DNA from: a virus
Virus record (IMG/VR): IMGVR_UViG_3300018954_000017
Coordinates: 66,216-104,255 of that record
Length of the DNA stretch: 38,040 nucleotides
Reading direction: 5' to 3' (one strand)
Below the pieces are notes generated by a model. The model saw nothing but the letters and a program-made list of their open reading frames with translations, did no database searches and was not told the origin of the DNA. The first letter of the stretch is position 1; the number at the start of each line of letters is the position of its first letter. A program made the position numbers and the translations under genes. Below are positions 5,062 to 31,521 of this stretch, one piece after another.

Positions 5062-5907
5062 ATGACTTACACAAATTATGTTGACGGCGACGGCATCAAA
5101 AGAAATCGCAAGGTTCGTAACACAGGAACAACCACAGATCCTTATGAGAGTTATGTAGTTGATGCAGATCTTGCTAATGCAATGGGTACATCAGCTTCAG
5201 CACCTGCAACGACTACTACTGGAACTTGGTCACTCATTAGTTTGATCAAAGGACTTTGGACAGCATTCGGATTAACCTCACAGGCTTCAGATACCACTGG
5301 CACACTAATGCAACGCATCAGAGGTATTGGCGATCGTATGGGGAGCTTTGGTGATCCGGCGAGCGCTACAGGTTCAATTATGGCTCAGTTGCGGACGATT
5401 GCGGAAAGCTATATTCTTCCTCGTGCTTCCAACGCTCAATACTATGCCAGTTTTGTTGGGGGTAATAAGTCTTACAATGGTACTCCGGGTGCTGTTGATG
5501 TCGCAGGAACAGGTGGTAACGTTTGTGTTTTTGTCAACCCTGTTGGCTCAGGAGTTGACTTATATATTCAACGTCTTGTTCTTTCCTCCGACAATGCAGG
5601 TCGTTACGAACGCTATCGACAGGCGACTTTAGGAACTCCAGGTACTCCAGTAGTTAATGTAAACAGAGGCGGCAATGGTTCCATAGGAGTTGGAAAAGTT
5701 TATCCTCCAGCACAAATTACTGCTACTGGAGGAAACATAAGCATGGTTACTTATGTGCCTGCTTCGGCTACAAGTGCTGACGCTGTAGATGGCACCCTGA
5801 TTCTACGTCCAGGACAAAACTTGTATTGGCGATATCTTCCCAACGGCAACGTGACTTCTAAATGTGCTGTTGAAGTTGTCTGGTGGGAATTGCCAGCGCA
5901 GGCTTAG
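5062..5907 (+). CDS. putative virion structural / tail-associated protein
   Basis: Directly follows J with an AAGG RBS. G/T/S/A-rich with a beta-rich C-terminal domain ending VVWWELP. Confidence 0.55.
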   Translation: MTYTNYVDGDGIKRNRKVRNTGTTTDPYESYVVDADLANAMGTSASAPATTTTGTWSLISLIKGLWTAFGLTSQASDTTGTLMQRIRGIGDRMGSFGDPASATGSIMAQLRTIAESYILPRASNAQYYASFVGGNKSYNGTPGAVDVAGTGGNVCVFVNPVGSGVDLYIQRLVLSSDNAGRYERYRQATLGTPGTPVVNVNRGGNGSIGVGKVYPPAQITATGGNISMVTYVPASATSADAVDGTLILRPGQNLYWRYLPNGNVTSKCAVEVVWWELPAQA

Positions 5908-8900: not shown

Positions 8901-11285
8901 CATCTTAGTCAGCTTAGTTGGGTTGCCTCGACTAACCGGGATCATTTTGGCTACCTGGTTAGCATCCGGAATCGAAATGCCTAGCACTTTAGCAACCTTC
9001 TTAATTGCAGCCCTAGATTGCAATGTGCCATAGGTACAAATTTGAGCAACCCTTTTACTCCCATACTTCTCTGTGACATACCGAATCATCTCAGCTCGAC
9101 CACCCGGATGAAAATCTGTATCAATATCGGGCATCTCGCGACGACCTTTATTCAAGAATCTTGCAAACGAAAGTCCATAATGAATCGGATCAACTCCAGT
9201 AATTCTAGTAGCATATGCCGCTAATGACCCAGCAGCAGAACCTCTGCCGACTCCAACACGAATGCCTTGCTCATTGGCGTGACGAATATAGTCTGCAACT
9301 ACGAGGAAGTAGCTAGCGAAACCCATTGAATTGATAACTTCAAGTTCCTCAGCCAGACGGTCTTTGTAATTCTGTGGTGGCTCTTCACCTTTGAAGCGAT
9401 CGCGTAAACCTTCTTCGCAAATGTGAGTGAACCAAGACTCGTAGGTATGTCCTGATGGAACCTCAAACTCTGGTGTTGTTGGGTCACGGAATAGTTCGTA
9501 CTCGCTGACCGATTCTGCCAATTTCACCGTATTGCCAAGAGCTGCATCTACAAGCTCATGTGGTAAGTAGTAAAATCTTTCTGCCAACTCACCTGATTTA
9601 CCGAACGTCAGATCTCGGTCATATCTAAATGAATCTGTCTCAAGTTGGCTGAGTGTTTTACCGTACTTGATACAATACAGGATTGAATGCACTTCGTAAT
9701 GGCAATCTTTCAGGTAATGAGAGTCTGCCGTAATGATAAACTGACAACCCAACTCCTGTCCCAGACGGACTAGAGCAAAATTTAACTTTTGGTAAATTTC
9801 AAGTCCGTCATGATCTTGTAACTCAATGTAGAAATTTTCCCCAAACGTCTCCTGATACCACTTTAGAATCTCTCTAGCTCTCTCTGGCTCATCATTGACT
9901 ATCAGTTGTGGCACTAGCGAGCCAATGCAGCCTGAAGTCACAATCAAGCCATCTTTGAACTCCTCTAGTTTTTCAAGGGTGATTAGTGGGTATGGTTTAC
10001 GTCCCCCACCCTGTTTCTTGTTGTGAATTTCACTCCAAGTGGTCAGCTTGGAAAGGTTGCTGTAACCTTGCAGACTCTTTGCCATTACTATCTGGTGGAA
10101 GCGCCCATTGTGCTTGTAATCACCTTGTAATTGATTATTAGCTTGCTTGGTCTGCAATAGACTGCTCAAGGGGTGTTCTAAGTATGTTTCGTTTCCAGCA
10201 ATGAACTTAACTCCAAACTTTTTGCAAGCCTCATAGAGGTCTGCTACCCCCATCATTGTCCCATGATCGGTGACTGCCACTGCTGGCTGACCAGCTTCTA
10301 AAGCAGCTTTAACAATCTCTTCTGGGGATGGCAGACCGTCGCTATAGTTTGAGTGTAGATGCAGATTGACGAATGAATCACTGAGTTTAACGTCCAGAAC
10401 CTCGGTTGTCTTGTTCGCTTCGCATAATACGGACTCCTTGTTATGTTGTTCTTTATCAATCTTAACAACTGTAGAATTAGTTGCGTCAGGCTTCATCAAC
10501 ACTTCATAAAACTCTTTGGGTAATCGAAGGTTTGCAGGAATTTTTCTATAGCGCAATAGTCCGGCTATTTGGTCAACCGAATAACCCGCTAGTCCACAGC
10601 CAATCTTGGTCATCAAAAACTCTTTATCTGGATGAGCCTTGATATATCCAAACAGTTCCGACAGTTGCTCATCAATGTAAGCCAATGAGACTGGCTGATT
10701 AATTGTTAGATCTTTGGTCACGATTGCGTAAGTTTGACCTTGCAGACCCCTAGCTTGACCGTAGATCGCTCTAAATGCCATAGCTGCTTTAGCCGCACCT
10801 TTACCATGACGACCTTCTGTGTTGGAACCGAAGATAAAGATTTGGTTTGGTTGGAGGGTGGTAATCTCGTCAGGAGTATACCGAGTCAATTGGTACTCTA
10901 CCTCTCTCTCTACTCGATATTCTTTTCCCTCAAACTTGAAGCCCTTAACCAGAAACTGCTCAATCATCCACTCATACGATCTTTCGTAATCCTCGTCACT
11001 AACAAGGAATACTACTGGACGATCGTAACGACACTCAGTAATGTCTCGCACAAGCTTCACGATGGCAGGTCTGCGCTCCAAGAAATGAGGCTTACAATCT
11101 TTCTTGAACTGCTCCCAGTCGCCAGTGCTGACATAAACTGCTGAAGCTTCCTGTGGCGGGTATAGCTGCGAATACTGTTGAACTCGAAGTCCACCGAATT
11201 CCGGGCGGACTGAGAAGAATTGACCTACGGTGCCCCAATTGTCTGTGTCGGAATATCGAACGATCTTTAACATTGGTGACTCCAT
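5904..11285 (-). CDS. dnaE: DNA polymerase III alpha subunit with ~300-aa N-terminal extension and an intein
   Basis: PHP motifs LHLHSNYSDG and AVTDHG; GRGSAAGSL; MPDIDTDF; HAAGVV; KMDFLGL; YGFNK/SHS interrupted by the intein. Confidence 0.97.
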   Translation of the reverse strand: MESPMLKIVRYSDTDNWGTVGQFFSVRPEFGGLRVQQYSQLYPPQEASAVYVSTGDWEQFKKDCKPHFLERRPAIVKLVRDITECRYDRPVVFLVSDEDYERSYEWMIEQFLVKGFKFEGKEYRVEREVEYQLTRYTPDEITTLQPNQIFIFGSNTEGRHGKGAAKAAMAFRAIYGQARGLQGQTYAIVTKDLTINQPVSLAYIDEQLSELFGYIKAHPDKEFLMTKIGCGLAGYSVDQIAGLLRYRKIPANLRLPKEFYEVLMKPDATNSTVVKIDKEQHNKESVLCEANKTTEVLDVKLSDSFVNLHLHSNYSDGLPSPEEIVKAALEAGQPAVAVTDHGTMMGVADLYEACKKFGVKFIAGNETYLEHPLSSLLQTKQANNQLQGDYKHNGRFHQIVMAKSLQGYSNLSKLTTWSEIHNKKQGGGRKPYPLITLEKLEEFKDGLIVTSGCIGSLVPQLIVNDEPERAREILKWYQETFGENFYIELQDHDGLEIYQKLNFALVRLGQELGCQFIITADSHYLKDCHYEVHSILYCIKYGKTLSQLETDSFRYDRDLTFGKSGELAERFYYLPHELVDAALGNTVKLAESVSEYELFRDPTTPEFEVPSGHTYESWFTHICEEGLRDRFKGEEPPQNYKDRLAEELEVINSMGFASYFLVVADYIRHANEQGIRVGVGRGSAAGSLAAYATRITGVDPIHYGLSFARFLNKGRREMPDIDTDFHPGGRAEMIRYVTEKYGSKRVAQICTYGTLQSRAAIKKVAKVLGISIPDANQVAKMIPVSRGNPTKLTKMIAEDTPVPEFRERYLKDTEFKRWIDIAIQVSGALASVGVHAAGVVIAGSDIEKLIPLMVMDDGTVVTQYDMNMVPKFGFLKMDFLGLINLAIIDEAVANIKQNRGETVDVDDLPMDDSATYTIFSRGLTEDIFQFGSKGMQGILKQLQPSTVEDLSVVNALYRPGALDSGMIPRYIARKHGKEPVEYDFPELQEALEDTYGVLVYQESVMKSSQVLAGFDDTRADQLRSVVGKKKVDKMPKERKDFLEGGTSRGFDEVKLNQFFDKVQTFGEYGFNKTVHEDTEIYIMGGNKPIKDCLPGDRVLSMNPDGSLSESTVVALHDHGMVPLWQVTFDDNSVECCTLDHKWLTKDGQLPLWKILKMGYSVWGSSKLQKETDCSPQRMHSLHLYQQNRSETQNHIVWGHSSNTEREIFALSVLPPVSGVTQKDESEQLQNFSPHTSNETKVFGNSEENICASGNSAGSCCPFEKMERRKSREISGNYNQSSVVTQECFSNGSVVDCKIGTYGVYSEYADRLFWQEETDRPNPQGQQDNHRSGWSLALFAYPRDRVVRKNTTERQNVGCGNYKTLLATNSFIDGELQFPYWGDRKSWVYSGTITEGNSGFGLDRSKVLRKPVRISFLGFRQGYDLEVDHPEHNFLLASGLCCSNSHSVGYSYLAYQCAYLKANYPAEYIAAFLSCTDVKKARQFIKLAKKSGVEVLPPDINISGENFTPSSENKVFFGLRLIKDLGDTAIQAILNARQEGEFTSLVDIFLRTRINVKALSALAYSGALDCICDNRKQLIESIKLLQDWKKKYEAMDDAAARTTESIEKRYTKLGLERSRQALETFVYENEPLNKTKTADVEFIVRKEKELSEIYNRKNFYLVEIEDDFTMDERLRKELEFTGFFITSNPVEELSQRDSFPIVNEDGVEPPDFVDVACAIIDKVYKIAKSSGNPRYELVLEDHSGTTVEAVAYYKALAKPQVIEAIENKLAFVGRFRVEPKEDDELQFMLYDVIT
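6957..8069 (-). mobile_element. intein in DnaE (371 aa, Thr1 ... Ser-Asn, +1 Ser)
   Basis: Inserted in FNK|SHS. TVHEDTEI (block A), CTLDHKW (block B), YDLEVDHPEHNFLL (block F), LCCSN (block G). Confidence 0.9.
7007..7849 (-). CDS. Vsr/DUF559-like (PD-(D/E)xK) homing endonuclease with Cys-rich N-terminus, in the +1 frame inside the dnaE intein
   Basis: QIDLIHRDSKTIIEVDGVWHF...QQRDRMLD...SWRLIRL is the DUF559/Vsr pattern. CxxC motifs (CIHC, CPQC) and a basic helical spacer. Start codon uncertain. Confidence 0.8.
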   Translation of the reverse strand: MDNFRSGKYSRWVTRCGVAVSSKKKLTAHHKECIHCISTSKTGAKPRTTLCGVTVPTQKEKSLHYRSCPQCQELHRKTRVNNCKTLVHTPAMRQKYSETAKKTSARPEIQQARAVPLKKWREENPEKFQEITIKAQSSPKNASRMEVWLIARLEHMGFIRNTRIDCSGRKKQIDLIHRDSKTIIEVDGVWHFLPIHGTELLERTQQRDRMLDAEIIKRSWRLIRLSMENFNSHTGEIGKAGFTLVQLLKVIQDLGWTGVRCYGSLYESLSWDSVKVTILK

Positions 11286-12119: not shown

Positions 12120-12785
12120 TCAACTGATTGCTTTGGCTTGCCAATAGGCTTCAGGTAGACCACGCATCATGTTTTCGTGACGAGCAGCGGCATCAACAAA
12201 CTTTGACATCCTGTTGAGTAGCGCGGACATATAAAGGATGTTTTGACCAAGTTCAACAATATCCTCTGGACGATCTACGAACCAGTCATAGATATTGCGA
12301 ATTACTCGATCATGATACATCCAGCCAACATATTCAGTCTCAAGTTTACGAATTAATTCATTGAGGTGATAGAGGCACCAGACCTCATAATTCTTTACAC
12401 TATGAACAAAATCTGGCGCATTCGGCAGTTCGCTTTTGTATGCGATTGTTTTTTCTGCCAATTCATCAATGTAGTCTTGTGAAGGAACATTTTTGGGTGA
12501 ATCGCCTAGATAATGAGCAAACCCGCTATAGCAAGCCATTGTCATCTCAATGATCTTTAGCTGCTCGTGTAATCCTTCGGTGACAAAGGTCAATTGTTCA
12601 ATGTCTAAGATTTTGTTGAGAAACATCCGGGCTTCTTCGGCACTGTGGTAGACCCGACAGATTGAACCATCTTTACGATCTTCAATCTTAGTCTTGATAC
12701 GATCTCCCTCGCGCACACTCATGTAGTTGGTGTAGCCGCGATCACCAGTACCAGGATGGTATTTTGTATGAAGTCTACTTGTCAT
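12120..12785 (-). CDS. divergent PduO-type ATP:cob(I)alamin adenosyltransferase-like protein
   Basis: N-terminal GTGDRGYT (PduO TGDxGxT) and C-terminal LNRMSKFVDAAAR (PduO LNRLSD..AR). Coupled to the B12-dependent nrdJ. Confidence 0.65.
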   Translation of the reverse strand: MTSRLHTKYHPGTGDRGYTNYMSVREGDRIKTKIEDRKDGSICRVYHSAEEARMFLNKILDIEQLTFVTEGLHEQLKIIEMTMACYSGFAHYLGDSPKNVPSQDYIDELAEKTIAYKSELPNAPDFVHSVKNYEVWCLYHLNELIRKLETEYVGWMYHDRVIRNIYDWFVDRPEDIVELGQNILYMSALLNRMSKFVDAAARHENMMRGLPEAYWQAKAIS

Positions 12786-15700
12786 TACTTAGCCTCCGGC
12801 ATCATGCATTTATCTGAATCGCATCCGACAACACCCTGATCTTTGTTCCACCCCCGATCGTACTTCTCAAGTAGTCCCTGAAAATCTTCCGATTGACGAC
12901 GGCTCAACACTTGCCGCTGTAGTTTATCGTAGCGTTCTTTAGAGATTGGCTCGAATGGTAAGCGAGGGTAGGTTTCGTTAGCATCAAATCGAGCGAGTAG
13001 GGCACAGCTGATGTAGCCTTCGTCATCCGCAATTGCATTGTAAATAAGATTGCCAACAGTTTCAATTTCGTGCTCTCGTAACTCAATTGTGGCACTCACG
13101 TTATGACCTGCATAATACTTCTGAACTTGCATGTAAAAGGAAAATTGAGCCTCTGCACTGAACTTACTAATGTCAATCTGATCCGCCCCCGGTAAATTAG
13201 CCCAAGATACCTCAACCGGAATCTCCACCAGCCACTCGGTTACCCGTGGGTCAAACGGGTCATCTAACAATCGCCCTTCGTCATCCTTGCAAGATTGCGA
13301 AGGTAGCACAGAATAGCCGTAGTCCATACAAGCGAGCGCTACAGGGTCATGAGAAGTGAATGTTATGCGACGGATGTACCGTTGCGCCTTGGGCGGGTGC
13401 CAGCCTGCCGAAGCGCCTGTAAGAAGACTTTTGGTATTGTGAGATTTAATCGCTCCTTGCCAATACCAGGAATCATCATCGTCAACTCCTTCAACAGCAA
13501 CATCATAGCTATAATCTGGGACACTTTCAAATTCAATTTTTTCAACTTGATATGGGTTGAATTTGAATTGACGTTTGGGATACGGAATAGGATATTTAGC
13601 CGCTTTTACACTCATCTGATTTAATTTTTCAATGGATTCCCATTCAGAGGTCATACGGCTTAAATTCAAAACCCACATAGAGCAAGTTAATTGAAAGTTT
13701 TCGCCTTTAGTCTCGTGATTAATTGAAAAACTTAACCCTACTGACTCGCCAATTTGCTGAAGATTACGCAGGAAGTTTTCACTAGCGCTTGTTATTCTAA
13801 CGCAGCCTCTTTCTTCTATTGCACCATCAGAATCAATCATACCACTAAAAAAAGCCAATATACTATTTCGAGAAGATTGCCTCAAAGCTTTTGGGATACG
13901 ATCAAGATAAGCACTTTTAACGGACTTACCTAATGAATGATATTCCATCCAAGCAAATAGCGGCTGACTAGCAAAGCAGAGTTCAGATCGACCACCACGA
14001 CTGTCTGGGTGCAATGTGCCTTTCAATCCGAATAAAGACTCTCCAATCTGACTTAATTTTTGGAGAATATTTTCGTTTCCGCTACAAAAACGAACTCGAT
14101 GTTTTCCGAGACTCATTGAACCGTCACCATAAAGCATTCCTAAAAAATAAGCAAGTTCAGGGCTTACGTTTTTAGGAGTGTTTATTTTATTTGCTGAACG
14201 ACCAAATTTGGATTGTTTTTCCGTGTTAAATGGTTTATCGGAAAAAGAGAATTCGGTTTCATTTCGGTATGTACCTAATTTAAAATCTAACTGCATTCCT
14301 GGAATCATTTCCGAGGCAAACACCCAGTCTCCCTGCACAGATAGCCTGTGATTAGGGGTCATTCTTAGGACTCGTCCGTTTGCTAAGGTTATCTTGACAA
14401 GTTTTAAAGGTTGGTTGGCTATACCTTGATTAACTTGAATTCCGCCACGAACACTAAGTTCTAAACATTTAAATTCTCCGCTTCCAGGATTCATTAATTC
14501 ATCAGCGTACAAAAGACCCTGATCAAAAATGCGAAGTGCGTTTTTATCCAGACATCCCGCAGGCTGAACAGTTGTGTAACGATTGGGGCGTTTGAGATTG
14601 TGCTTGTTGCAATAGTCGAAGAGTTTGACCCGGACGTATTCTTTCCAGTAGCTAAGATAACGACGTTCAAGATCGCAATATAAAAGACCTTCGTTAAAAT
14701 CGTTTTCCTCCGAATAAACCTCATCATCTTCATTTATACCCAGTAGCTTGGCAATCTTATCAATGCGACCGTAATCATCAGCGGGTATATACCACTTTTC
14801 AGGTCTTCCTTCAGCCCACCAACGCAACCAATCGCTACCAAATGCTTGCACAAAAAAGTCAAACAATCCAGTGAAAGACACACCCACAATTGGGTCAAGT
14901 TCGCGACTGATACGATAGCGCTCATCAGGAAACACATGATGCAGTAGAGCGGCTACAGACAGTGCTCCAGCTTCAAAGGCTAGCTTTTGTTGGGCGAGGT
15001 CGAGGGGATTGATTTGGTTGAGGTGGATTTCTGAAAGGTCACAGAGAAAATCTTTTCCGAGAATTTCTCCACAATTGTGAGCCACAAAACCTTCAACCAC
15101 TCCCCAGTGTTCTAGTGGCTCCGTGAAGTCGTAGACTTTTGCTGTACCTGCTGGATTCACCGATCGAACTTTTGGTGCATTGTTTGTTAAGTGACATGCT
15201 AATTTTTCTGTTTTGTACTGAATAGAAAATCCAATTTCATTGAAGAAAGTGCAACGATGCTCGTATTTTTGGATGTTGACATCATAGCTTTCTCGACACT
15301 GATATACACCATTTGCAAACTCAATCATTTTGGGTTTGTTTGTTGTATAGTAAGCGTCAATTCCAAAATCTTCACACAAACTGCCCAGTAACTGTTCGAC
15401 AAGAACAAAGGAAGTTGTTTTGAAGCTGATTCTGCCACCAGCAATGACAGATCCATTTGCTGAGTACAAACCGTTTAGGAATGCAGCTTTTTCACTCTTA
15501 TTCCAGTCAGAATAAGTTCCGGGTAATTTTCTTTCTGGTAATTGTACAAAATGAAAATCTAGGCTGTGCAACTGTTCATTAAAACCGTACAGATAAATAT
15601 GTCGATCTCCTTGCCAATTAAACTCGTAATTGTTGGCTTCAATTAAACTCAAAATATCTGTGTCATCTTTGCCAATGTTTACGACTACACCTAAACACCC

Positions 15701-17257
15701 TTTTGTGAATGCCGACTGCGAAAGTTGTCCGTCTCCTTGAATAAATCCCAACACTTTGAATTCAACATTATGTTCCGGATTCTTCAAGTAGGGCACCAAT
15801 TGCTTTTGCTTGCATTGGCTAGCCATGAACTGTCCTTCCGTTGTCAAAAATACATGGTCGGCAGTGCAGTAGATTCTCTCCTGAGTTGTTAAATTCAGGT
15901 AAACGATTCCCTTTTCACCAGAACACCAAACTTTTGATTGCGATACATTTCCGAACGCATTTATAATTAGTGGTTCTGTATCTTCGAGTTCCTCAAAAGT
16001 TTTGTACCCATCTACAGTCAACAAACGCATATCTCCCCGAAAACAAGGGTTTAATCCTACTCTAGACATCCGATGCTCTAGCTCTGCATCAGATAACTCT
16101 AGACCCTTTTGTTTGGCAAAAGCTTGTAAGTTGGTTTTTGCAATTTGCGGACTCAACTCATAGGCACGTAGGAAGATAGATTTGTTTCCATTATCCAACA
16201 GATCAGCATTAGCCCTCGCCACAGCTTCTCCAGCCCACTGAATCGCTCCCTCGCCGCTATAGAACTGCTTCCGTACAGCCTCAACGCACTCTTGTAACGA
16301 TGGCTTGTAATGGTATACACGGGTATGATTGCTCATGCGTAATGCGTCTCTTTCAGGGTCAATGCGCCAAGTTCCGTCAGCATCTTGCACCCAAAGATTC
16401 TCCTTCAGTAGCGGTGCATCTGAGTCAAACTGCCTCATACCAGCGTAACGGCGGACATTACCTGCCACAATAGTCAGCGCTGGTTCATCCAATAGCAGGC
16501 AGACACCCTCAGCATCCAACTGCCGACCAACGTAGCGATTGAGTACTGCGGCTACACGTTCGTAGAGGCGGGAGAGTTTGATGGGGTTAGCGACTCCTCC
16601 AAACCCTTTGATAGGTGTTCCGTCAGGGCGGACGGATGATATATCAACCGAGATGTTTACATGGTTAGAAGTCTCTCCATAAGTTAGTAAATCTTCAAAT
16701 GCTAGCTTTAGTACAGTCATCATTGAGTCAACCCACCCTTGTCGGGAATCTCCAACAACAACTTCAACTTCCAGTCCTATTTCTGTTCCATAGGCTTCAA
16801 CGTAAGTTTTATCCAACCGCACCGCATGCTGCCCTGGCTCACCAATGACCCGCACTTGCAAGCTATTGCGAACTGGAGGAAGCTGAGAGATATAACGGTC
16901 TTCTAGGACGGCACCTGTCCCACATCCCATCATGCCAAGAGACATCATTAGACCGAAGGATTCGAGATCGTTGATGTTTGTAGAGTTGCAGTTGTAAGCA
17001 GAGTAGAAGTTTTCAGGATTCTCAATCCACTCAGTTCCACCAACCCACATCCAGCGACCAGATGGCAGGGTAATTTTCTGTTCCATCATGTCGGCAACTA
17101 AGGCGAATTCATCAGCGTTAAACTTGCCAACTTTTGCAAGTCCTTGGCTAGTTCTTTCGGTTACGTCGGCATAGTTTTCGCGATTGCCTTCCACACGCCG
17201 ACTATAGGTACGATAGAAAGTTGGAGCACTTGTTGCTGCTGGAAATTCTTGGTTCAT
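12785..17257 (-). CDS. nrdJ: class II (AdoCbl-dependent) ribonucleotide reductase with two inteins
   Basis: FYRTYSR, LPSGRWMWVGG, YNC, GNVRR, NP|CGEI, TTVQPAG|TKSLL, and C-terminal GCDSDKC. Confidence 0.95.
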   Translation of the reverse strand: MNQEFPAATSAPTFYRTYSRRVEGNRENYADVTERTSQGLAKVGKFNADEFALVADMMEQKITLPSGRWMWVGGTEWIENPENFYSAYNCNSTNINDLESFGLMMSLGMMGCGTGAVLEDRYISQLPPVRNSLQVRVIGEPGQHAVRLDKTYVEAYGTEIGLEVEVVVGDSRQGWVDSMMTVLKLAFEDLLTYGETSNHVNISVDISSVRPDGTPIKGFGGVANPIKLSRLYERVAAVLNRYVGRQLDAEGVCLLLDEPALTIVAGNVRRYAGMRQFDSDAPLLKENLWVQDADGTWRIDPERDALRMSNHTRVYHYKPSLQECVEAVRKQFYSGEGAIQWAGEAVARANADLLDNGNKSIFLRAYELSPQIAKTNLQAFAKQKGLELSDAELEHRMSRVGLNPCFRGDMRLLTVDGYKTFEELEDTEPLIINAFGNVSQSKVWCSGEKGIVYLNLTTQERIYCTADHVFLTTEGQFMASQCKQKQLVPYLKNPEHNVEFKVLGFIQGDGQLSQSAFTKGCLGVVVNIGKDDTDILSLIEANNYEFNWQGDRHIYLYGFNEQLHSLDFHFVQLPERKLPGTYSDWNKSEKAAFLNGLYSANGSVIAGGRISFKTTSFVLVEQLLGSLCEDFGIDAYYTTNKPKMIEFANGVYQCRESYDVNIQKYEHRCTFFNEIGFSIQYKTEKLACHLTNNAPKVRSVNPAGTAKVYDFTEPLEHWGVVEGFVAHNCGEILGKDFLCDLSEIHLNQINPLDLAQQKLAFEAGALSVAALLHHVFPDERYRISRELDPIVGVSFTGLFDFFVQAFGSDWLRWWAEGRPEKWYIPADDYGRIDKIAKLLGINEDDEVYSEENDFNEGLLYCDLERRYLSYWKEYVRVKLFDYCNKHNLKRPNRYTTVQPAGCLDKNALRIFDQGLLYADELMNPGSGEFKCLELSVRGGIQVNQGIANQPLKLVKITLANGRVLRMTPNHRLSVQGDWVFASEMIPGMQLDFKLGTYRNETEFSFSDKPFNTEKQSKFGRSANKINTPKNVSPELAYFLGMLYGDGSMSLGKHRVRFCSGNENILQKLSQIGESLFGLKGTLHPDSRGGRSELCFASQPLFAWMEYHSLGKSVKSAYLDRIPKALRQSSRNSILAFFSGMIDSDGAIEERGCVRITSASENFLRNLQQIGESVGLSFSINHETKGENFQLTCSMWVLNLSRMTSEWESIEKLNQMSVKAAKYPIPYPKRQFKFNPYQVEKIEFESVPDYSYDVAVEGVDDDDSWYWQGAIKSHNTKSLLTGASAGWHPPKAQRYIRRITFTSHDPVALACMDYGYSVLPSQSCKDDEGRLLDDPFDPRVTEWLVEIPVEVSWANLPGADQIDISKFSAEAQFSFYMQVQKYYAGHNVSATIELREHEIETVGNLIYNAIADDEGYISCALLARFDANETYPRLPFEPISKERYDKLQRQVLSRRQSEDFQGLLEKYDRGWNKDQGVVGCDSDKCMMPEAK
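13436..14554 (-). mobile_element. nrdJ intein 2 with in-frame LAGLIDADG endonuclease (373 aa)
   Basis: CLDKNAL...MTPNH...FLGMLYGDG...FSGMIDSDG...SYDVAV...KSHN|T. Confidence 0.92.
15074..16045 (-). mobile_element. nrdJ intein 1 with in-frame LAGLIDADG endonuclease (324 aa)
   Basis: CFRGDM...CTADH...LGFIQGDG...FLNGLYSANG...VYDFT...AHN|C, immediately before the catalytic Cys of NPCGE. Confidence 0.92.
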
Positions 17258-24856: not shown

Positions 24857-26446
24857 CTACAGTGTTCCTTCAGCAATCATTTGAATGACTTTAGGAGCAC
24901 TAGGATCAAAGCCAGCGATATCGTAGCTCAGAGGATCACTGGGGTCTACCTGAGTGATATTGTAAGGTGCTAGGGAGATATAAACTGCTTTGGCATTAGG
25001 GTTGATTTGCCGACGATATCTGTCAAGTGCTTGTGATGGGTGCTGATAGCCAGCGAAAGACTCATTGTCTGTCCAGGTACAGAAAACATCCACATGAATC
25101 TTGTTATTAGTTGCCCATTGGTACGCCAATGAAGCATCAGTTGAACCAAAGTTGTTCTTGCGGGTTTTGGCGACGGCATTAGTAAAGCTATCGCTTGCTG
25201 TAATGCCAAGGTCAACGAATTGGTGAGAAAAACCCCGAATGATATAGTTGCGTTCTGCCTTAGCCGTTGCAAGCGCCATTGTTGCTGCTACCTCACAGCA
25301 GGCAATATCGGCACCACCACTGACGGTTGAACTCATGCTGGCTGAGACATCAATTGCATGCATAAAAACCTTGCCCGTTGGCGCTTGAGTCTCAAACGAA
25401 AGGTTCAGAGCCTTGTCTAGAATGTCCACAATTCTTGGTACTGGAGTCCACGTCTTCTGCGAACGACCGAGACTGCCGCCGCTGGAGTAAGTCTTAAGTG
25501 CCTTTAGCACATCAATTGGATGAATTCGAGCGGATCGGAGGGTATCAGGATTGTTAAGTTTTTGTTCAACCAAATCCAGATTACCAATCTTGTCGAATCT
25601 CAACACTCCAATCTCTGTTAATGAACCTAGATTTCGCAGTAACGCTGTCATTGGCATGCTATTGAATAGCTCCTGCCAGACTTCGGGGGTCATTCTGGTA
25701 ATTCCAGAGCACATTTCGTGCGTAAGCCGACCTTGGCGAATTGCCTGTACTCCATCATCAGGGTTGCGCTTGAGATATTCAAACCACCAAAGTTGATGGA
25801 GTTCGGGGTCTACGTCATAAATACTTGGTAACTCATTCCAACCGTCAATAATCCAACTGAATAGATTCTGGTGATTGCCCGTTGCTTTGGGCTTGAACAA
25901 CCTCAATACATCTTTGTTACTGTACCCATTCCTTTGCTGGTACTTGAGCAATTGATAGGCTAATGCTTTAGGTTCTTTACTCAACCAACTTAACCCAGCT
26001 TCCTTAACTAGCCGCCCCATACCCCGTACCTGCTTGGTATATGACAGCCACTCATACAAATGAGAACCAGTCCGCACAACTTGTGGGAAAATTTCTTTAA
26101 ATGCCGTTTTAGCTTCTTTAGAGGCATCGGCACTCAATAGCACTAATGCGAATATTGGTGCACTATTGTTAATCGAATGTCCGTCAGAGGCATACAGGAT
26201 TTCTTCTGCAACCTTTCTAGGATCACGAGAAATGGCTTTTTTCACAACCTCTATGAACTCTCCCGTCAATTCTCGCTTTCCAGCATAGTATGTTGACTGA
26301 CTTGTTCCGATGAGCAGGCACCGACGCAACTGTTGCCAGACATCAGCTTCAAACGCCATTGCACCACTCCGACCGCGAATCATGGCTTTGTTGGGAATTG
26401 GTTCAGTTTGAGGGGTTGATTGATTGAAATAGAATGCGTAGTTCAT
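24857..26446 (-). CDS. Ro60 / TROVE-domain RNA-binding protein (Rsr-like) with C-terminal vWA domain
   Basis: TPQTEPIP, RRCLLIGT..TYY, YQLLKYQQRNGYSNKDVLRL, MPMTALLRNLG, RIHP, vWA DVSASM, TDNES, GFD. AGGAGA RBS. Confidence 0.95.
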   Translation of the reverse strand: MNYAFYFNQSTPQTEPIPNKAMIRGRSGAMAFEADVWQQLRRCLLIGTSQSTYYAGKRELTGEFIEVVKKAISRDPRKVAEEILYASDGHSINNSAPIFALVLLSADASKEAKTAFKEIFPQVVRTGSHLYEWLSYTKQVRGMGRLVKEAGLSWLSKEPKALAYQLLKYQQRNGYSNKDVLRLFKPKATGNHQNLFSWIIDGWNELPSIYDVDPELHQLWWFEYLKRNPDDGVQAIRQGRLTHEMCSGITRMTPEVWQELFNSMPMTALLRNLGSLTEIGVLRFDKIGNLDLVEQKLNNPDTLRSARIHPIDVLKALKTYSSGGSLGRSQKTWTPVPRIVDILDKALNLSFETQAPTGKVFMHAIDVSASMSSTVSGGADIACCEVAATMALATAKAERNYIIRGFSHQFVDLGITASDSFTNAVAKTRKNNFGSTDASLAYQWATNNKIHVDVFCTWTDNESFAGYQHPSQALDRYRRQINPNAKAVYISLAPYNITQVDPSDPLSYDIAGFDPSAPKVIQMIAEGTL

Positions 26447-26504
26447 AAATCTCTCCTATATATGACAAGTGGCGCACTCCATCCGAAGATAAAGTACGCC
26501 ACAA

Positions 26505-26632
26505 AGCCGAGAGCAGGACTCGAACCTGCATATCCCGCGTGGAAGGCGATAACCTCAAATCATTCGGCTCCGAGAGGAGCAAGTTGTAGACTCAAGATGT
26601 TTTAGGTGTCCTAACCATTAGACGATCTCGGC
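26505..26632 (-). tRNA. tRNA-Gly(TCC)-like gene with a 56-nt Y-RNA-like insert (26549-26604) in the anticodon stem
   Basis: GCCGAGA TC GTCT-AATGGTTA-GGAC A CC[insert]CGC CTTCCAC GCGGG ATAT GCAGG-TTCGAGT-CCTGC TCTCGGC T. A full cloverleaf once the insert is removed. Confidence 0.85.
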
Positions 26633-26635
26633 ATT

Positions 26636-26764
26636 TGGGACTGAGGACGGGACTCGAACCCGCAACCAGGGCATTATAAGTGCGATAATCTCATCAATTC
26701 AGCTCTTACAAGCAAGATATTAGACAAGAATTTTTACCTGCTCTGCCAATTGAGCTACCTCAGT
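26636..26764 (-). tRNA. tRNA-Ile(TAT)-like gene with encoded CCA and a 53-nt Y-RNA-like insert (26684-26736) in the anticodon stem
   Basis: ACTGAGG TA GCTC-AATTGGCA-GAGC A GG[insert]GCA CTTATAA TGCCC TGGTT GCGGG-TTCGAGT-CCCGT CCTCAGT C CCA. Confidence 0.85.
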
Positions 26765-26772
26765 CAAGTTTG

Positions 26773-26895
26773 GGCTGATGATAGGATTTGAACCTATAAC
26801 CCAAAACTACCTGATAACCTCCATCTGTCGGCTCTATTGAGCAAGGGGTTTGACGAAGATAATGTTTTTGTTCTACCAGATTGAACTACACCAGC
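26773..26895 (-). ncRNA. tRNA-like RNA whose anticodon loop is replaced by the Y-RNA-like insert
   Basis: GCTGGTG TA GTTC-AATCTGGTA-GAAC A AAAAC[insert]GTTTT GGGTT ATAGG-TTCAAAT-CCTAT CATCAGC C. No canonical anticodon loop. Confidence 0.8.
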
Positions 26896-26903
26896 CATGT
26901 GAG

Positions 26904-26970
26904 TAGGGCAAGAGAATGAAAGAAGATGTGGTTCCATAATTAAGTAGATAACCTCCTTTCCGCAGCCCTA
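26904..26970 (-). ncRNA. small free-standing Y-RNA-like hairpin
   Basis: TAGGGC TGCG GAAAGGAGGT TATCT...CAC ATCTTCTTTC ATTCTCTT GCCCTA. The ends pair, and it shares the GAGGTTATC, ATCTT and CTTGC motifs with the three tRNA inserts. Begins at the predicted transcription start. Confidence 0.7.
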
Positions 26971-26975
26971 TCCTG

Positions 26976-27004
26976 ATACTACTGCAATCTTACACATCTG
27001 TCAA
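26976..27004 (-). promoter_or_regulatory. strong sigma70-type promoter for the Y-RNA/tRNA/Ro60 operon
   Basis: TTGACA-gatgtgtaagattgcag (17 nt)-TAGTAT, with +1 predicted at about 26969-26970. Confidence 0.85.
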
Positions 27005-27011
27005 GCATTAG

Positions 27012-27203
27012 TTAGCATTTGGCTAACTTTTGCAGCAACGGATAGCCAAGAGCAAACACTTGCTCCATGAACTCCTGTTTGTTTAAGCCGAGCGTCAGTC
27101 GCATTTCTTCTATCTCATCCTTTTGATCTTCCGGAAGCCTGAAAGGGTATTGTGGGCGTTTCGCACGATAGTTCTTGTAGATTTCTGGGTTTCGTTTAGT
27201 CAT
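27012..27203 (-). CDS. small RHH-like DNA-binding protein
   Basis: QYPFRLPEDQKDEIEEM...LNKQEFM gives a beta-helix-helix pattern. Confidence 0.5.
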   Translation of the reverse strand: MTKRNPEIYKNYRAKRPQYPFRLPEDQKDEIEEMRLTLGLNKQEFMEQVFALGYPLLQKLAKC

Positions 27204-27206
27204 TAC

Positions 27207-28202
27207 CTAATCCTCTTTGAGTAAAAATTTGTTTGAAATTGCCTTGAATGAGATACGCTCACCGCCATCATCAGTTACAAAAACTACACCTTCGCGTTCT
27301 GTAGTGGGCTGTAGCTGGCTTTTGCCTTCTGCATAGGCGAGGATTTCTTCAATAGTATCCGGCAAGCTGAAGATGCTATTGAGTACCGGAACAAACTTTA
27401 GTCCATTCGCCTGAGTCCAGAGTTGAGCTTTAGTTATGTCTACATATTCTCCTTTGCTAATGTCGTAGATATTGAAGACACACAGTTCTGGTTGCTCCAC
27501 CTTGTATTTGTTGCCCTGGATGCCCGGAGCGACAATCTCACCTTGAATGGCTAAGTTCATTCCTTCCAAAAGTTCTTGTAAGTTATACCGTTTGGCAATC
27601 TTCCAATAAATTGAAGACTCGTCTTCATTCAGTTCCCAATTGCGGCTACAAACTCCAAATTGGTCGTTGTAATTAAAGGCTGTGAAAGAAGTTCCATCTA
27701 ATTTCTCAGTTACAGTCCAACTCCTTTGCTGCCATTGCGACAACATTGATGAAAGGTTTTGGATGCGTTCTTCATCAGTTTTAGGGATGAACGAAGGAAA
27801 CGTCCCACTAGCTGATGATGTACCAACAACGGGTAGTGTTACTTCATATTTCGTAATTCCTAGATCTTCCGTAACATCTTGCCCAATCTCTAGATTGCTA
27901 TTGAACGGCAAAGGAAGCACTAGTCCCTGCGATAGTTGCCCTCGCAACTTAATGGTCTTGATACGGAATCCTTCAGTCCCATCAGCCATCTTGCGATAGC
28001 AAGATTTGCGGAGAAACTCATATTCCGGCTTGATGGGCAGCAATGAGTCAATTTCGCAGTAAACCACAAGATTCCCTACCTGGTATTCATCCTTCTTCAC
28101 TACAGCTTGCCATCCGTCCACAATAGCTAGCTCTAGTGCGTCTGCGTTGGGTATCAGGCGGATTTCTGAGATTTGTCGGATTGTTGCTAATTTACGGGTC
28201 AT
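27207..28202 (-). CDS. RNA ligase, DRB0094 (Rnl5)/Rnl2-like family
   Basis: MTRKLATI..IPNADALE..WQAVV, YCEIDS, LRGQLSQGL, KTDEERIQN, motif I EKLDGTS, IQGE, REGVVF, FKAISNKFL. Confidence 0.93.
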   Translation of the reverse strand: MTRKLATIRQISEIRLIPNADALELAIVDGWQAVVKKDEYQVGNLVVYCEIDSLLPIKPEYEFLRKSCYRKMADGTEGFRIKTIKLRGQLSQGLVLPLPFNSNLEIGQDVTEDLGITKYEVTLPVVGTSSASGTFPSFIPKTDEERIQNLSSMLSQWQQRSWTVTEKLDGTSFTAFNYNDQFGVCSRNWELNEDESSIYWKIAKRYNLQELLEGMNLAIQGEIVAPGIQGNKYKVEQPELCVFNIYDISKGEYVDITKAQLWTQANGLKFVPVLNSIFSLPDTIEEILAYAEGKSQLQPTTEREGVVFVTDDGGERISFKAISNKFLLKED

Positions 28203-28348
28203 AATCCTCTCTCCTTTTTAAGTGCTTCTTGGATGATCCCAGCATACGTTAGCGACCAAGTGATTGCAATGGTATTCTCTTGCTCGTCTACAAGCTTGTA
28301 GTGTTCGCTTCGACGATCAAAATTTACCACAAAAATATCAACTTTCAT
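28199..28348 (-). CDS. 49-aa hypothetical protein coupling the helicase to the RNA ligase
   Basis: MKVDIFVVNFDRRSEHYKLV...ERGL*, with ATGA overlaps at both ends. Confidence 0.55.
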   Translation of the reverse strand: MKVDIFVVNFDRRSEHYKLVDEQENTIAITWSLTYAGIIQEALKKERGL

Positions 28349-31300
28349 GTCTCCCCCTCGTATCCCTCAAAGTACTCCAATTTCAGTCCAGCACACGGTA
28401 GCTGCATTAGCTTCTCTAGCTCAACAGGATCACGTTCTAACGGTACGAAATACATGGCAGCTTTTGACCGCGTTAGGGCTACGAATGTTGCATATATTTC
28501 CTGTTGGAACTGCCAATTTAACATTCCCATTCTGTAGTATGGTAACAGATTGATACCCACCACGTAAACTCTCTGAGATTCATCACCTTTTGCCGAGTGA
28601 ATGCTGCTGTAGATTACGTGTCTCGTCCGGTCTTCCTCTTCCACCGGGAATACCTCCTCAATCTTCTCTACAAACTCCTTCACTGACTCGGCAGATTGCC
28701 CTAGGAACTCGTAACAGTACTCTAGACACCGATAGCGGTCTTCAGTTGCATCAGCTTGCGTGAGCTGTCCAGCAAGCTTGTAGCGTTCAACGAGGTACTC
28801 CTTCTGTTCGAGCAGTTTAGAGTGAAAGTCACCCCACTTACAATTCTTACCAATCTGCTTTGCAAACCCGCCCATCTCTTTCGCAATGTCTCGTGCCCGG
28901 ACAACTCCCTCAACTCCATTGAAAAATTTGGCTTCGAGAAAAAGTTTGATGAGTGGTGCGACGAACCTGCACAACACTAAATCTCCCGGTTGTACAGATG
29001 ACTTGACTGTATCAGGATGCATTAGCTCACAGGTGCCGTCTATGGCATCCTGTCGGGCTTTCATTTGAGGACTGATAAGTGAGGCAAGAGCGACATGACT
29101 TTTGGGACAGCGCTGGGATTCTGAGAGTGGGAGAACTTTGGCGTTGAAGAGTTTAATGATGGTCTCCATTGCTGTAGGTAACGCTGCCATGTACCCTGAG
29201 ATAGATTGTTTTTCGTCGCCCACAAAAATACAACGGTATCCGACAAGTTCATACTTTTTGTAGAGCGATATAAAGGCACGGTTAGCATCCTGACAATTAT
29301 GGGACAAGATGCCGTTGCCGAAAAAGTTGTGGTTATCTTCTACGTCGATGCAGTAGACCCACTCTTCTTCAGTTTGATTTTTTGTTGAGTCAATATTCCT
29401 CCACATTTGCTGCTGCAAGTTTGTGGATAAACTCCAGCTTCTTTCTTGCAATTGTTGTGATATCGGTAGAGAGTACCGCAGATTGGGCAAGGACGCTTTT
29501 GTAAATGTTCTCGTTGCTGTTGGATTCTTAGTATACGACCACATTCCCTGCTGCACGTCTTGTACCAAACTTCCCCAGTTTTGATATCGAGACGACTCTG
29601 ATAGTCTTTGTTGCAGACCGGACATGAATATGTTTTTAGGGGATTTGTCGCTGAAGCTTTTCTCGCCGCCTTCTGGCAACTGCTGCTGCAATAGTAACGG
29701 GAGTAAGCTTGGGTTTTCGTACAGAGATACGTTTCGTGTTCCGTTCCACAGTGGTTGCAGGGTTTGGTGGTTTGAATTACAGACTGTTTGATCTTTAGTG
29801 TTTCCGGAGTGCACCCCGAATTTAGTTTGTAAGAAAGAGATGGATGGATATATGGTCTGATTAGTTGAAAAAACGCATCTCGTCCATGCGCTGAAAATGT
29901 CAGTATTCCTCCTTTGCTCGTTGGTGTTGCTTGAGAATTGCAACCCAAAGAAGTTAGGTATTCTGCTGCCAATGCAATTTCTTTCATCGAAAAAGCATAA
30001 GTTGAAATCTTTGCTTGACCGCTGAAACTCCCGTCGTCCATAAACCATACTGCCAAAGCCAACGGATTTAGTTGACTCAGAACCGCTTCTGTGATTTGTT
30101 TTTTCTGACCCGTTGGTTTGAACAGGTGATATATCTCTGTGAATAGTGGGTGAGAAATTGTCGCAAAACTCCGAACCACTCCACCAAACTCGGTTGGCAT
30201 TAATGGTGACAGACCTTTGTTCCCAACCCAACGATTCAGACTGTCGTGCTTCCACTGAAGATAATCTTGTTGTGCTACTCCATGTCTGAAGGATATCCGG
30301 GCATTCCCCATTTTGCCTTTCCACCTGCTGATTCCGAACGAAGCATCGCCAAGAAGCGACCCAATGATAATCGAACGCTCGGTCGTCGTTAGTTTGTCTG
30401 AAGGATTGTAGTTTTTGACCATCGATTTGAAGCAGTGAATGTTGTGGTTTTAATTGTCCTGCGTAGATGTATCCCTGCTCTTTCGTGTACACCGGATGAT
30501 TATCGGTAGCCTGTAGTCCACAAACGTTAACAATAGCTCGATTGTGTCGTTGAACTTTATACCATCCAGTAATTTTCTTAACTTCAATTTGTTGGCTAGA
30601 TGTATTGAAGCTCAAAATGTCTAATGATAGTTTATCTCGAACTATTTCGTCAATACGTTTGGTGCGACCGTCTGCAAGACTAACCAATGTGTCGCCCGTG
30701 ACGCACTCGTCAATCAGCAGATAACTCTTTTCCGCTTTTGGTGCCTGTGGATACAATTTTAATTTATGTGGCAACCAGACCATATCCGCATAATCGATTA
30801 CGTGGTCATATGCGCCCATTCGATAGCAGTCTTCCAGCAAGTCCATTGCAATTTTGACTCCCCACGCAGTTCCAGGTTTACCAAAAGGGAACCTGATCGC
30901 AAAGTAATTGACTACCCAATCCATTGAGTCAACATTGTCATCGGCTAAGTTCAATCGCGCAAAGTCAAGCAAACTCTTTAGCGACTCTTGCCATCTTTCG
31001 AGCAATAGCTCTGCCCTTTCGCTGTCTTCAGGCAACCTTGGTGGTGCAATTGGGTATCGGCGGCTTTTGTCAGCTATGACTTCTTTGAGACGATTTAGCC
31101 CCCATTGAGCTAACTTGTCAGCCTTGTGTTTGTCTACCTCCGGCATTTCTCCTTTGAACTTTCGGATAAGCAGAGCTTCGCCGCAACCGTGAGCTGTTGA
31201 AACATTTACACGTTTTGGTATTCTGGGATCTTGTTCAAATGCCAACTTGACAGATTTGTTGAACATCATTACGTTGATTTTTACGTTTGGAGGCAAAAGT

Positions 31301-31521
31301 CCAACTATTCCTTTTAGAAGAGTACTTTTGCCAGAACCTGCGGTAGAAGATACCACTAAATTTTCATCACTTTCCTGCAATTCTTCAAATACTTTTATTT
31401 GGTATTCATTCCAAGGAATTGCTGAGATTACCTCTTTACTCCAACGTCTCGGTGTCCACTCATCCTGCTTAACTATACTCGCAACAGTTTTTTCACGTTT
31501 AGCTTTAGCTGCCATGAACAA
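28345..31521 (-). CDS. UvrD/Rep-like SF1 helicase with intein
   Basis: TAGSGKST, LIDE|CQD (Walker B), VGDEKQSI, SQRCPK, SIHSAKGDE, VALTRSK. Confidence 0.92.
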   Translation of the reverse strand: MFMAAKAKREKTVASIVKQDEWTPRRWSKEVISAIPWNEYQIKVFEELQESDENLVVSSTAGSGKSTLLKGIVGLLPPNVKINVMMFNKSVKLAFEQDPRIPKRVNVSTAHGCGEALLIRKFKGEMPEVDKHKADKLAQWGLNRLKEVIADKSRRYPIAPPRLPEDSERAELLLERWQESLKSLLDFARLNLADDNVDSMDWVVNYFAIRFPFGKPGTAWGVKIAMDLLEDCYRMGAYDHVIDYADMVWLPHKLKLYPQAPKAEKSYLLIDECVTGDTLVSLADGRTKRIDEIVRDKLSLDILSFNTSSQQIEVKKITGWYKVQRHNRAIVNVCGLQATDNHPVYTKEQGYIYAGQLKPQHSLLQIDGQKLQSFRQTNDDRAFDYHWVASWRCFVRNQQVERQNGECPDILQTWSSTTRLSSVEARQSESLGWEQRSVTINANRVWWSGSEFCDNFSPTIHRDISPVQTNGSEKTNHRSGSESTKSVGFGSMVYGRREFQRSSKDFNLCFFDERNCIGSRIPNFFGLQFSSNTNEQRRNTDIFSAWTRCVFSTNQTIYPSISFLQTKFGVHSGNTKDQTVCNSNHQTLQPLWNGTRNVSLYENPSLLPLLLQQQLPEGGEKSFSDKSPKNIFMSGLQQRLSESSRYQNWGSLVQDVQQGMWSYTKNPTATRTFTKASLPNLRYSLPISQQLQERSWSLSTNLQQQMWRNIDSTKNQTEEEWVYCIDVEDNHNFFGNGILSHNCQDANRAFISLYKKYELVGYRCIFVGDEKQSISGYMAALPTAMETIIKLFNAKVLPLSESQRCPKSHVALASLISPQMKARQDAIDGTCELMHPDTVKSSVQPGDLVLCRFVAPLIKLFLEAKFFNGVEGVVRARDIAKEMGGFAKQIGKNCKWGDFHSKLLEQKEYLVERYKLAGQLTQADATEDRYRCLEYCYEFLGQSAESVKEFVEKIEEVFPVEEEDRTRHVIYSSIHSAKGDESQRVYVVGINLLPYYRMGMLNWQFQQEIYATFVALTRSKAAMYFVPLERDPVELEKLMQLPCAGLKLEYFEGYEGET
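29296..30705 (-). mobile_element. intein in the helicase Walker B motif (470 aa)
   Basis: CVTGDTLV...ATDNHPV...VYCIDVEDNHNFF..ILSHN|C. Confidence 0.92.
29340..30422 (-). CDS. LAGLIDADG_2 (I-SceI-like) homing endonuclease with C-terminal Zn-finger repeats, in the +1 frame inside the helicase intein
   Basis: IIIGSLLGDASF ... LNPLALAVWFMDDGS ... RPYIHPSLSYKL. Repeats CNHC/YCSSSC, CPVC/TCSREC and CPIC/TCSSKC. Confidence 0.88.
   Translation of the reverse strand: MVKNYNPSDKLTTTERSIIIGSLLGDASFGISRWKGKMGNARISFRHGVAQQDYLQWKHDSLNRWVGNKGLSPLMPTEFGGVVRSFATISHPLFTEIYHLFKPTGQKKQITEAVLSQLNPLALAVWFMDDGSFSGQAKISTYAFSMKEIALAAEYLTSLGCNSQATPTSKGGILTFSAHGRDAFFQLIRPYIHPSLSYKLNSGCTPETLKIKQSVIQTTKPCNHCGTEHETYLCTKTQAYSRYYCSSSCQKAARKASATNPLKTYSCPVCNKDYQSRLDIKTGEVWYKTCSRECGRILRIQQQREHLQKRPCPICGTLYRYHNNCKKEAGVYPQTCSSKCGGILTQQKIKLKKSGSTAST

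Follow-up and report, generated by a model that had tools for sequence, protein, structure and literature searches.

The stretch of DNA considered here (the window) is 38,040 nucleotides (nt) of the IMG/VR virus record IMGVR_UViG_3300018954_000017, positions 66,216 to 104,255, and the question it raises is why transfer RNA (tRNA)-shaped genes on its minus strand, lying just upstream of a gene for the protein Ro60, are interrupted by short inserts in the anticodon region. A first-pass annotation had noted that removal of two of the inserts regenerates complete tRNA genes, had proposed a new spliced type of tRNA intron with the neighbouring RNA ligase as the joining enzyme, and had named as its alternative an unspliced RNA from which an additional arm projects at a three-way junction. 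That alternative is what the evidence favours. The units are best read as a circularly permuted form of YrlA, a Y RNA with tRNA-like arms, in which the tRNA 5' and 3' ends are true ends and a short loop caps the Ro60-binding stem, and it is likely that each unit is an unspliced Y RNA-tRNA chimera. This reading rests on gene order, Y RNA motifs, covariation of the helices, tight linkage to Ro60 and a conserved anticodon loop with a free anticodon.

The units lie in a 480-nt non-coding array whose end is 58 nt from the Ro60 start on the same strand, and which holds four RNAs, namely one hairpin Y RNA and three tRNA-shaped units (A, B and C, all on the minus strand). The sequence across 26000-27057 was identical in an independent DNA sample (run X3), and the array is therefore not an assembly error. 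Unit A (26773-26896) has an 8-base-pair (bp) acceptor and a Y module in place of the anticodon loop; it scores 49.5 bits against the Rfam tRNA model, with a 52-nt insertion, and 77 bits against model R1. It had been passed over in the first-pass annotation, and carries the same insert with no anticodon hairpin to regenerate. Unit B (26636-26765; 93 bits against model R1) has an extra G-1:C73 pair, an encoded CCA and the loop UAU at 26680-26674, with A1 at 26764, U72 at 26640, then C73 and the CCA up to 26636. Its 53-nt insert (26684-26736), which starts UAAAAA and ends GAUUAUC, is predicted to be a capped Ro60-binding Y module and contains the motif GCUGAAUUG at 26703-26695, followed by YUAY. 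Unit C (26505-26632; 104 bits against model R1) is a tRNA-Gly(UCC)-like RNA with a 7-bp acceptor, G1:C72, C2:G71 and U73, no encoded CCA, G1 at 26632, U73 at 26505 and the loop at 26545-26539. The same prediction applies to its 56-nt insert (26549-26604), which starts UAAAAC, ends GGUUAU and has the exact motif GNCGAAUG at 26568-26561, again followed by YUAY. ARAGORN with intron search called all three units and no other tRNA in the 104-kb genome.

The array was compared with five phage-like relatives (L003-L007) and 88 cyanobacterial Ro60 loci, 94 loci being counted in all. At 92 of these, 213 distinct tRNA-shaped units were found, 212 of them with a YUAY-type motif, and the carriers were mostly cyanobacterial chromosomes. 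Strict GNCGAA is present in 158 of the 212 units, being exact in unit C and deviating in units A and B. The extra G-1:C73 pair occurs in 157/212, and in 55 of these it is followed by N plus CCA, giving an 8-bp acceptor. An alignment of 62 diverse units was scored against a structure made up of the acceptor, D arm, split anticodon stem, two Y helices with a bulged C, and T arm. In it 95.4 % of cells were paired and 28 of 37 pairs showed compensatory changes, both Y helices included, which is above all 500 shuffles and all slid controls. Anticodon-stem pairing had been used in selecting the units; the Y helices had not. All eight within-unit acceptor pairs show compensatory changes. Minimum free energy folding alone misses the anticodon arm (z -1.5 to -2.2), and the structure rests on the covariation. 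A search by RNA only, with a model from the 62 units, found 14 carriers among 151 cyanobacterial genomes, and in 13 of the 14 a Ro60 gene lies no more than about 2.5 kb away. At twelve loci there is just one unit, and its T arm is followed by no D arm, so that these loci cannot be read as YrlA. Sampling was almost wholly of Cyanobacteriota, with the distribution beyond it barely covered: five actinophage loci held YrlA-order RNAs or ordinary tRNAs and no complete unit of the array type, and scans of IMG/VR and JGI metagenomes for Ro60 and for the insert pattern gave nothing, or chance matches in coding DNA.

The insert is predicted to correspond to a Y RNA's Ro60-binding stem whose two ends have been joined, the tRNA replacing the Y RNA loop domain, because the motifs lie in its 3' half, their partner strand lies in its 5' half and a short loop joins the two. 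The split anticodon stem around it is real: in 192 of the 212 units, compared with 106 after shuffling, nucleotides 27 and 28 pair with 43 and 42 across the insert, and these pairs show compensatory changes. What had been described for units B and C was reproduced. Excision of 26736-26684 and 26604-26549 yields ARAGORN calls of tRNA-Ile(tat) and tRNA-Gly(tcc), with all five anticodon-stem pairs Watson-Crick and loops of 7 nt, and the insert sizes of 53 and 56 nt were confirmed. Both inserts do start with UAAAA after nt 28, but their ends do not correspond, being one nucleotide apart relative to the shared UUAUC. By itself an ARAGORN call after deletion is weak evidence, as hundreds of arbitrarily placed deletions of 40-65 nt are called as tRNAs too. 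Excision would look precise because the unspliced RNA keeps a complete anticodon arm, interrupted by a three-way junction.

The loop presented by this arm is fixed in architecture and free in anticodon. Among 125 loops from units chosen on geometry alone, U33 is present in all 125 and position 37 is a purine in 123, and positions 34-36 are close to random (1.9 bits). As in real tRNAs, G37 accompanies G36 in 9 of 10 distinct loops, compared with 1 of 28 otherwise. A34 anticodons (AGG, ACC) and the stop-reading UUA and UCA occur, and one body may carry many anticodons, a Gly body bearing an Asp anticodon at L036 and a Tyr anticodon at L074. Selection thus appears to keep an authentic loop and not a particular codon reading. 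Unit C has the complete bacterial Gly identity set (U73, G1:C72, C2:G71, C35, C36). The bacterial tRNA-Ile discriminator is A73, and bacterial tRNA-Ile has C4:G69 and C29:G41; unit B lacks this identity, having C73, G4:C69 and G29:C41, and its end pair G-1:C73 is His-like. The anticodons of its orthologues are UUU, UCU, UGU and UGA, and its insert-free junction has one match in IMG/VR, an ordinary tRNA-Thr(UGU) of another phage, which points to a Thr-like ancestor and not to splicing. From the orthologue anticodons, the Thr(UGU)-matching arm and the absent Ile determinants, the Ile reading of unit B would therefore be a one-letter drift. The insert-free Gly junction of unit C is absent from IMG/VR.

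The defining motifs of YrlA are GNCGAAN0-1G, where Ro60 is likely to bind, and YUAY, at the start of the V loop (Chen et al. 2014, PMC4201824). Both motifs are present in the array inserts, the array lies next to Ro60 (within 4 kb) on the same strand, and the units share with YrlA the tRNA-like D and T arms and a Ro60 module that extends from the anticodon-stem region. In YrlA, however, the T arm is 5' of the D arm, the acceptor is closed and the ends lie in the Ro60 stem, and the array units reverse all of these features; they also keep both strands of the bulged-C helix and have an explicit, diversified anticodon loop. YrlA has been described as lacking an anticodon loop. Actinophage YrlAs of ordinary order (L111, Gordonia phage Mareelih; L114, Sparky; L110) nevertheless share the split stem, and in them YUAY is followed by a 7-nt loop, which suggests that the YrlA V arm is the same anticodon hairpin. 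RNAs of the YrlA type were located in actinophages at L111:4718-4839, L114:1590-1712, L110:1680-1800, L112:1145-1260 and L113:1340-1500, with loops UGG (with G37), UGC, GUG and GCA directly after YUAY.

Other described RNAs resemble the units in part. A two-piece molecule made by processing would also have tRNA-like acceptor ends and a Ro60 arm, whereas an array unit is one encoded chain. Thermus phage phiLo (PMC12135203) likewise has a phage Ro60 with upstream Y-like RNAs (Yrl1 and Yrl2) and a proposed counter-defence through host PNPase, but these are Y RNAs with an ordinary 5'-3' stem for which no tRNA body is described. The b7a-tRNA of Burroughs and Aravind (2016), as summarized in 10.1101/312249, is a tRNA-like RNA of RNA-repair neighbourhoods that is sometimes beside Rsr. 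Mohanta et al. (2017, PMC5733544) listed 38-49 nt "group I introns" in tRNA-Gly(TCC) of Nostoc PCC 7107 and tRNA-Lys(CTT) of Gloeocapsa PCC 73106. In the available part of that paper, the lengths and the motifs CTTGxCT and GAAGAAT match the array insert, and the calls are based on tRNAscan, carry no link to Ro60 or Y RNA and no splicing evidence, and concern elements too short for a group I ribozyme. These are very probably members of the same family, and the published annotation would be corrected accordingly. No description of a permuted YrlA was found in the literature, of which the relevant reviews and surveys were incompletely covered. The present analysis adds the family's phage branch, tests that speak against splicing, statistics on the anticodon loops and a link to the regulator TrcR.

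In the proposed mechanism, the array would be transcribed from its sigma70 promoter as one transcript, which host RNase P and the 3'-trimming and CCA-adding enzymes would cut into L-shaped RNAs of 125-130 nt. A three-way junction after nt 28/29 would let the Y arm branch off the anticodon stem and dock on Ro60, with the 2-3 bp anticodon hairpin stacked under 27:43 and 28:42 and the normal 7-nt loop facing out. The tRNA look-alikes held by Ro60 could then act as a sink or a sensor for anticodon-directed nucleases and other enzymes that handle tRNA, and could bring the partners of Ro60 (PNPase, RNA ligases) to damaged tRNA. Cyanobacteria would run the system under the translation-stress repressor TrcR, and the phage copy would be a captured one with its own promoter, serving as counter-defence against host tRNA-cutting defences with the Rnl5 ligase as an optional repair partner. 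The TrcR operator (PMC10272220), with at most 4 mismatches, was found upstream of 52 of 90 arrays and in 1 of 414 control windows, and no TrcR operator was found at the phage array promoters. The TrcR regulon also includes rtcB and a cryptic tRNA operon, likewise repressed, in a translation-stress context (PMC10272220).

At 75 of the 88 host loci (L009-L096), the last 45 nt before the Ro60 start hold a capped copy of the Ro60-binding helix that overlaps the ribosome-binding site, the phage having a different, perfect hairpin there. This suggests that Ro60 represses its own translation once its RNAs are saturated, and since the copy sits on a ribosome-binding site, the module exists as a protein-binding hairpin in a place where splicing would serve no purpose. 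A bait or scaffold role is in line with proposals in 10.1101/312249 and with that of Hughes et al. (PMC7790460), in which YrlA is a competitive inhibitor of anticodon nucleases. The full explanation, an unspliced permuted-YrlA chimera acting as a Ro60-tethered bait, is considered probable; taken by itself, the role as anticodon-loop bait falls somewhat short of an even chance. A fixed Ro60 handle and an exchangeable authentic loop under the TrcR regulon predict such a decoy or sensor for tRNA-cutting nucleases. YrlA could plausibly descend from a unit of this type, a real tRNA that has gained a Ro60 arm after nt 28/29, and tandem arrays allow a permuted YrlA to be cut out, as the dimeric-tRNA model requires. 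Y RNA function in bacteria and phages thereby becomes testable, in genetically tractable Nostoc strains.

Several points weigh against the chimera. The sampled loci are phylogenetically clumped, with many from Nostoc, so that the counts and the Fisher p-value overstate independence, and the register count (198/210 compared with 18/105) is partly built in, the parser having demanded within-unit acceptor pairing. Excision gives a canonical arm in 124 of the 212 units, 88 of which share one junction. Unit C and the unit at L118 have an acceptor identity that matches the anticodon, and some units may be charged. It is conceivable, though unlikely, that a subset with a 7-bp acceptor and matching identity (such as unit C) are conditional tRNAs: in translation stress or infection, bound Ro60 would mark the Y arm for excision, followed by religation, or else the intact chimera would be charged and used. 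If true, the first case would amount to a tRNA intron of bacteria that depends on protein, the second to a working tRNA tethered to Ro60, and neither has a known counterpart.

A quite unlikely alternative is that at least the 7-bp-acceptor units are unspliced working tRNAs, which are charged and decode with the Y arm in place or are kept by Ro60 as a protected reserve. The Gly identity is complete in unit C and in Rivularia and Calothrix units with U73 and CCA, the units at L118 (Asn, G73) and L119 (Lys, A73) sit within ordinary tRNA arrays, and U33 and R37 are strictly kept, with G36-G37 coupling. Yet the anticodon changes at L036 and L074 came with no change in acceptor identity, C73, G4:C69 and G29:C41 contradict the Ile determinants in unit B, and a 55-nt arm with a 60-kDa ring on the anticodon stem should be hard to accommodate in the ribosomal sites. 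Each of the hosts checked gave 71-72 Rfam tRNA matches, and almost all of these are of ordinary length. The best candidates for a charged member are the units at L118:3941-4070 and L119:3795-3920 (minus strand), the first in Sericytochromatia and the second in another genome. Each is a Y-arm tRNA inside an ordinary tRNA array beside a divergent Ro60; the L118 unit has the anticodon GUU and is the only Asn tRNA in its 7 kb, and the L119 unit has CUU.

Highly unlikely is the new short intron, in which the Y module would be excised, perhaps guided by Ro60, and the halves joined by Rnl5 or host RtcB, giving tRNAs and a free Y-like RNA. It draws on the perfect cloverleaves left by units B and C, the full Gly identity of unit C and the regenerated arm in the 124 units. 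A cut between paired nucleotides would leave a duplex nick of the type that is an Rnl5 substrate (PMC1807946, PMC5397189), these enzymes sealing 3'-OH/5'-phosphate nicks (PMC1807946), and processing of YrlA to tRNA was raised as a possibility by Wang et al. (10.1101/312249). In the two genes, however, no single rule accounts for both junctions. The only cuts that suit unit B are one after nt 28 together with one after UUAUC, a combination that holds for 4 of the 124 units, and unit C fits cuts after nt 28 and UUAU, or after nt 29 and UUAUC; the best joint rule serves 88 of the 124. The other 88 of the 212 units (about 40 %, unit A included) give no canonical arm on excision, the hairpin being missing, or a different hairpin lying 5' of the module, or, in 13 units, the two Y strands flanking the anticodon hairpin, which leaves no continuous stretch that could be cut out. 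The spliced products would also be poor tRNAs, with A34 and stop-reading anticodons and mostly 8-bp acceptors mismatched to the anticodon.

The ligase proposed as joining enzyme is present at 3 of the 94 loci and is an optional neighbour of the array, being absent beside it in L005-L007 and within 3 kb of all the cyanobacterial loci. The phage record, 87 % complete, yielded no splicing endonuclease (EndA), no RtcB and no Pnkp-type kinase. The one RNA run, which consists solely of contigs, reaches a relative's ligase region and tRNA motifs of 19 nt; it does not cover the inserts, has no joint over either and speaks neither for nor against splicing.

It is very improbable that the arrays are tandem YrlAs read in the wrong register, each running from an insert through the T arm and the D arm of the next unit to the next insert. 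An Rfam YrlA match spans units A and B in that register and cross-unit acceptor pairing is often 6/7, but the match reaches 23.3 bits against a gathering cut-off of 69 (RF02553), and no match above the cut-off was found in the window or in 5 host genomes. The "much longer" acceptor stem of some cyanobacterial YrlAs reported by Wang et al. (2018, 10.1101/312249) resembles the cross-unit register, and probably is a cross-unit reading of such arrays. Against this register stand the twelve single-unit loci and the compensatory changes in the within-unit acceptor pairs, and the arrays open with a 5' acceptor strand, close with a 3' acceptor strand and have spacers of 5-147 nt, with the Y stem capped by a short loop that is often GNRA. 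A self-splicing group I or group II intron was rejected on size (53-56 nt), on inserts ending in C or U where group I needs a terminal G, and on the lack of an Rfam intron match at E<=1. A protein-spliced archaeal or eukaryal intron is made unlikely by the absence of PF01974 from the phage record, this family being present only in archaeal controls.

The virus record is linear and 104 kb long, with the window at its end, encodes among others tail, DNA polymerase, ribonucleotide reductase and helicase genes, and was seen in biocrust metagenomes. The virus is likely a cyanophage, as the closest cellular relatives of its Ro60 come from cyanobacteria (about 63 % identity). Read along the minus strand, an Rnl5-family RNA ligase is followed by a ribbon-helix-helix protein of 63 amino acids (aa), the sigma70 promoter, the array and Ro60/Rsr. 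The ligase (27207-28202) belongs to the ATP-dependent, nick-sealing Rnl5/DRB0094 family (TIGR02306, 207 bits). The ribbon-helix-helix gene (27012-27203; Pfam RHH_1 20.6 bits, at the cut-off) is kept directly upstream of the array promoter in L003-L005, and its product is a possible phage regulator of the array; identification with TrcR was not adopted, the protein having no match in four cyanobacterial genomes. The sigma70-type promoter (26976-27004; TTGACA, 17 nt, TAGTAT) matches at 10 of 12 positions, and TTGACA stands at the same place in L003 and L005. The hairpin Y RNA (26906-26968) is of ordinary order, with the 5' strand first and the 3' strand last, is YrlB-like and lacks a tRNA body (fold z -2.06); it has a counterpart at the same position in L003-L007. 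A 15-bp hairpin with a CUUCGG cap (26469-26502; z -7.3) lies between the array and the Ro60 ribosome-binding site, with similar hairpins in L003-L007. It has no U tract and was not called by terminator prediction, and is proposed to be a processing or 3' protection signal. Ro60/Rsr itself (24857-26446; TROVE and vWA domains) is 529 aa long.

Several neighbours of the arrays were noted elsewhere. In 7 cyanobacterial loci the gene next upstream of the array belongs to the CCA-adding/poly(A) polymerase family (for example L021:560-2047), and a conserved open reading frame of 349 aa with no Pfam match is divergent upstream of it in 64 (for example L037:1339-2385, minus strand). Two units at L116:4196-4486 (genome G043) have no Ro60 gene in their 7 kb, the neighbours being a ParA-like ATPase, MgtC and an EAD4-NACHT protein. 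In the window, the UvrD-like helicase (28345-31521, minus strand) carries an intein (PF14890); the helicase of L005 has an intein with a LAGLIDADG domain, and that of L004 has no intein listed. Inteins are possible, too, in the genes for the long polymerase (5904-11285) and for ribonucleotide reductase (12785-17257), and a group I intron unrelated to the array lies in a phage relative at L006:863-1090 (Rfam RF00028, 57.5 bits).
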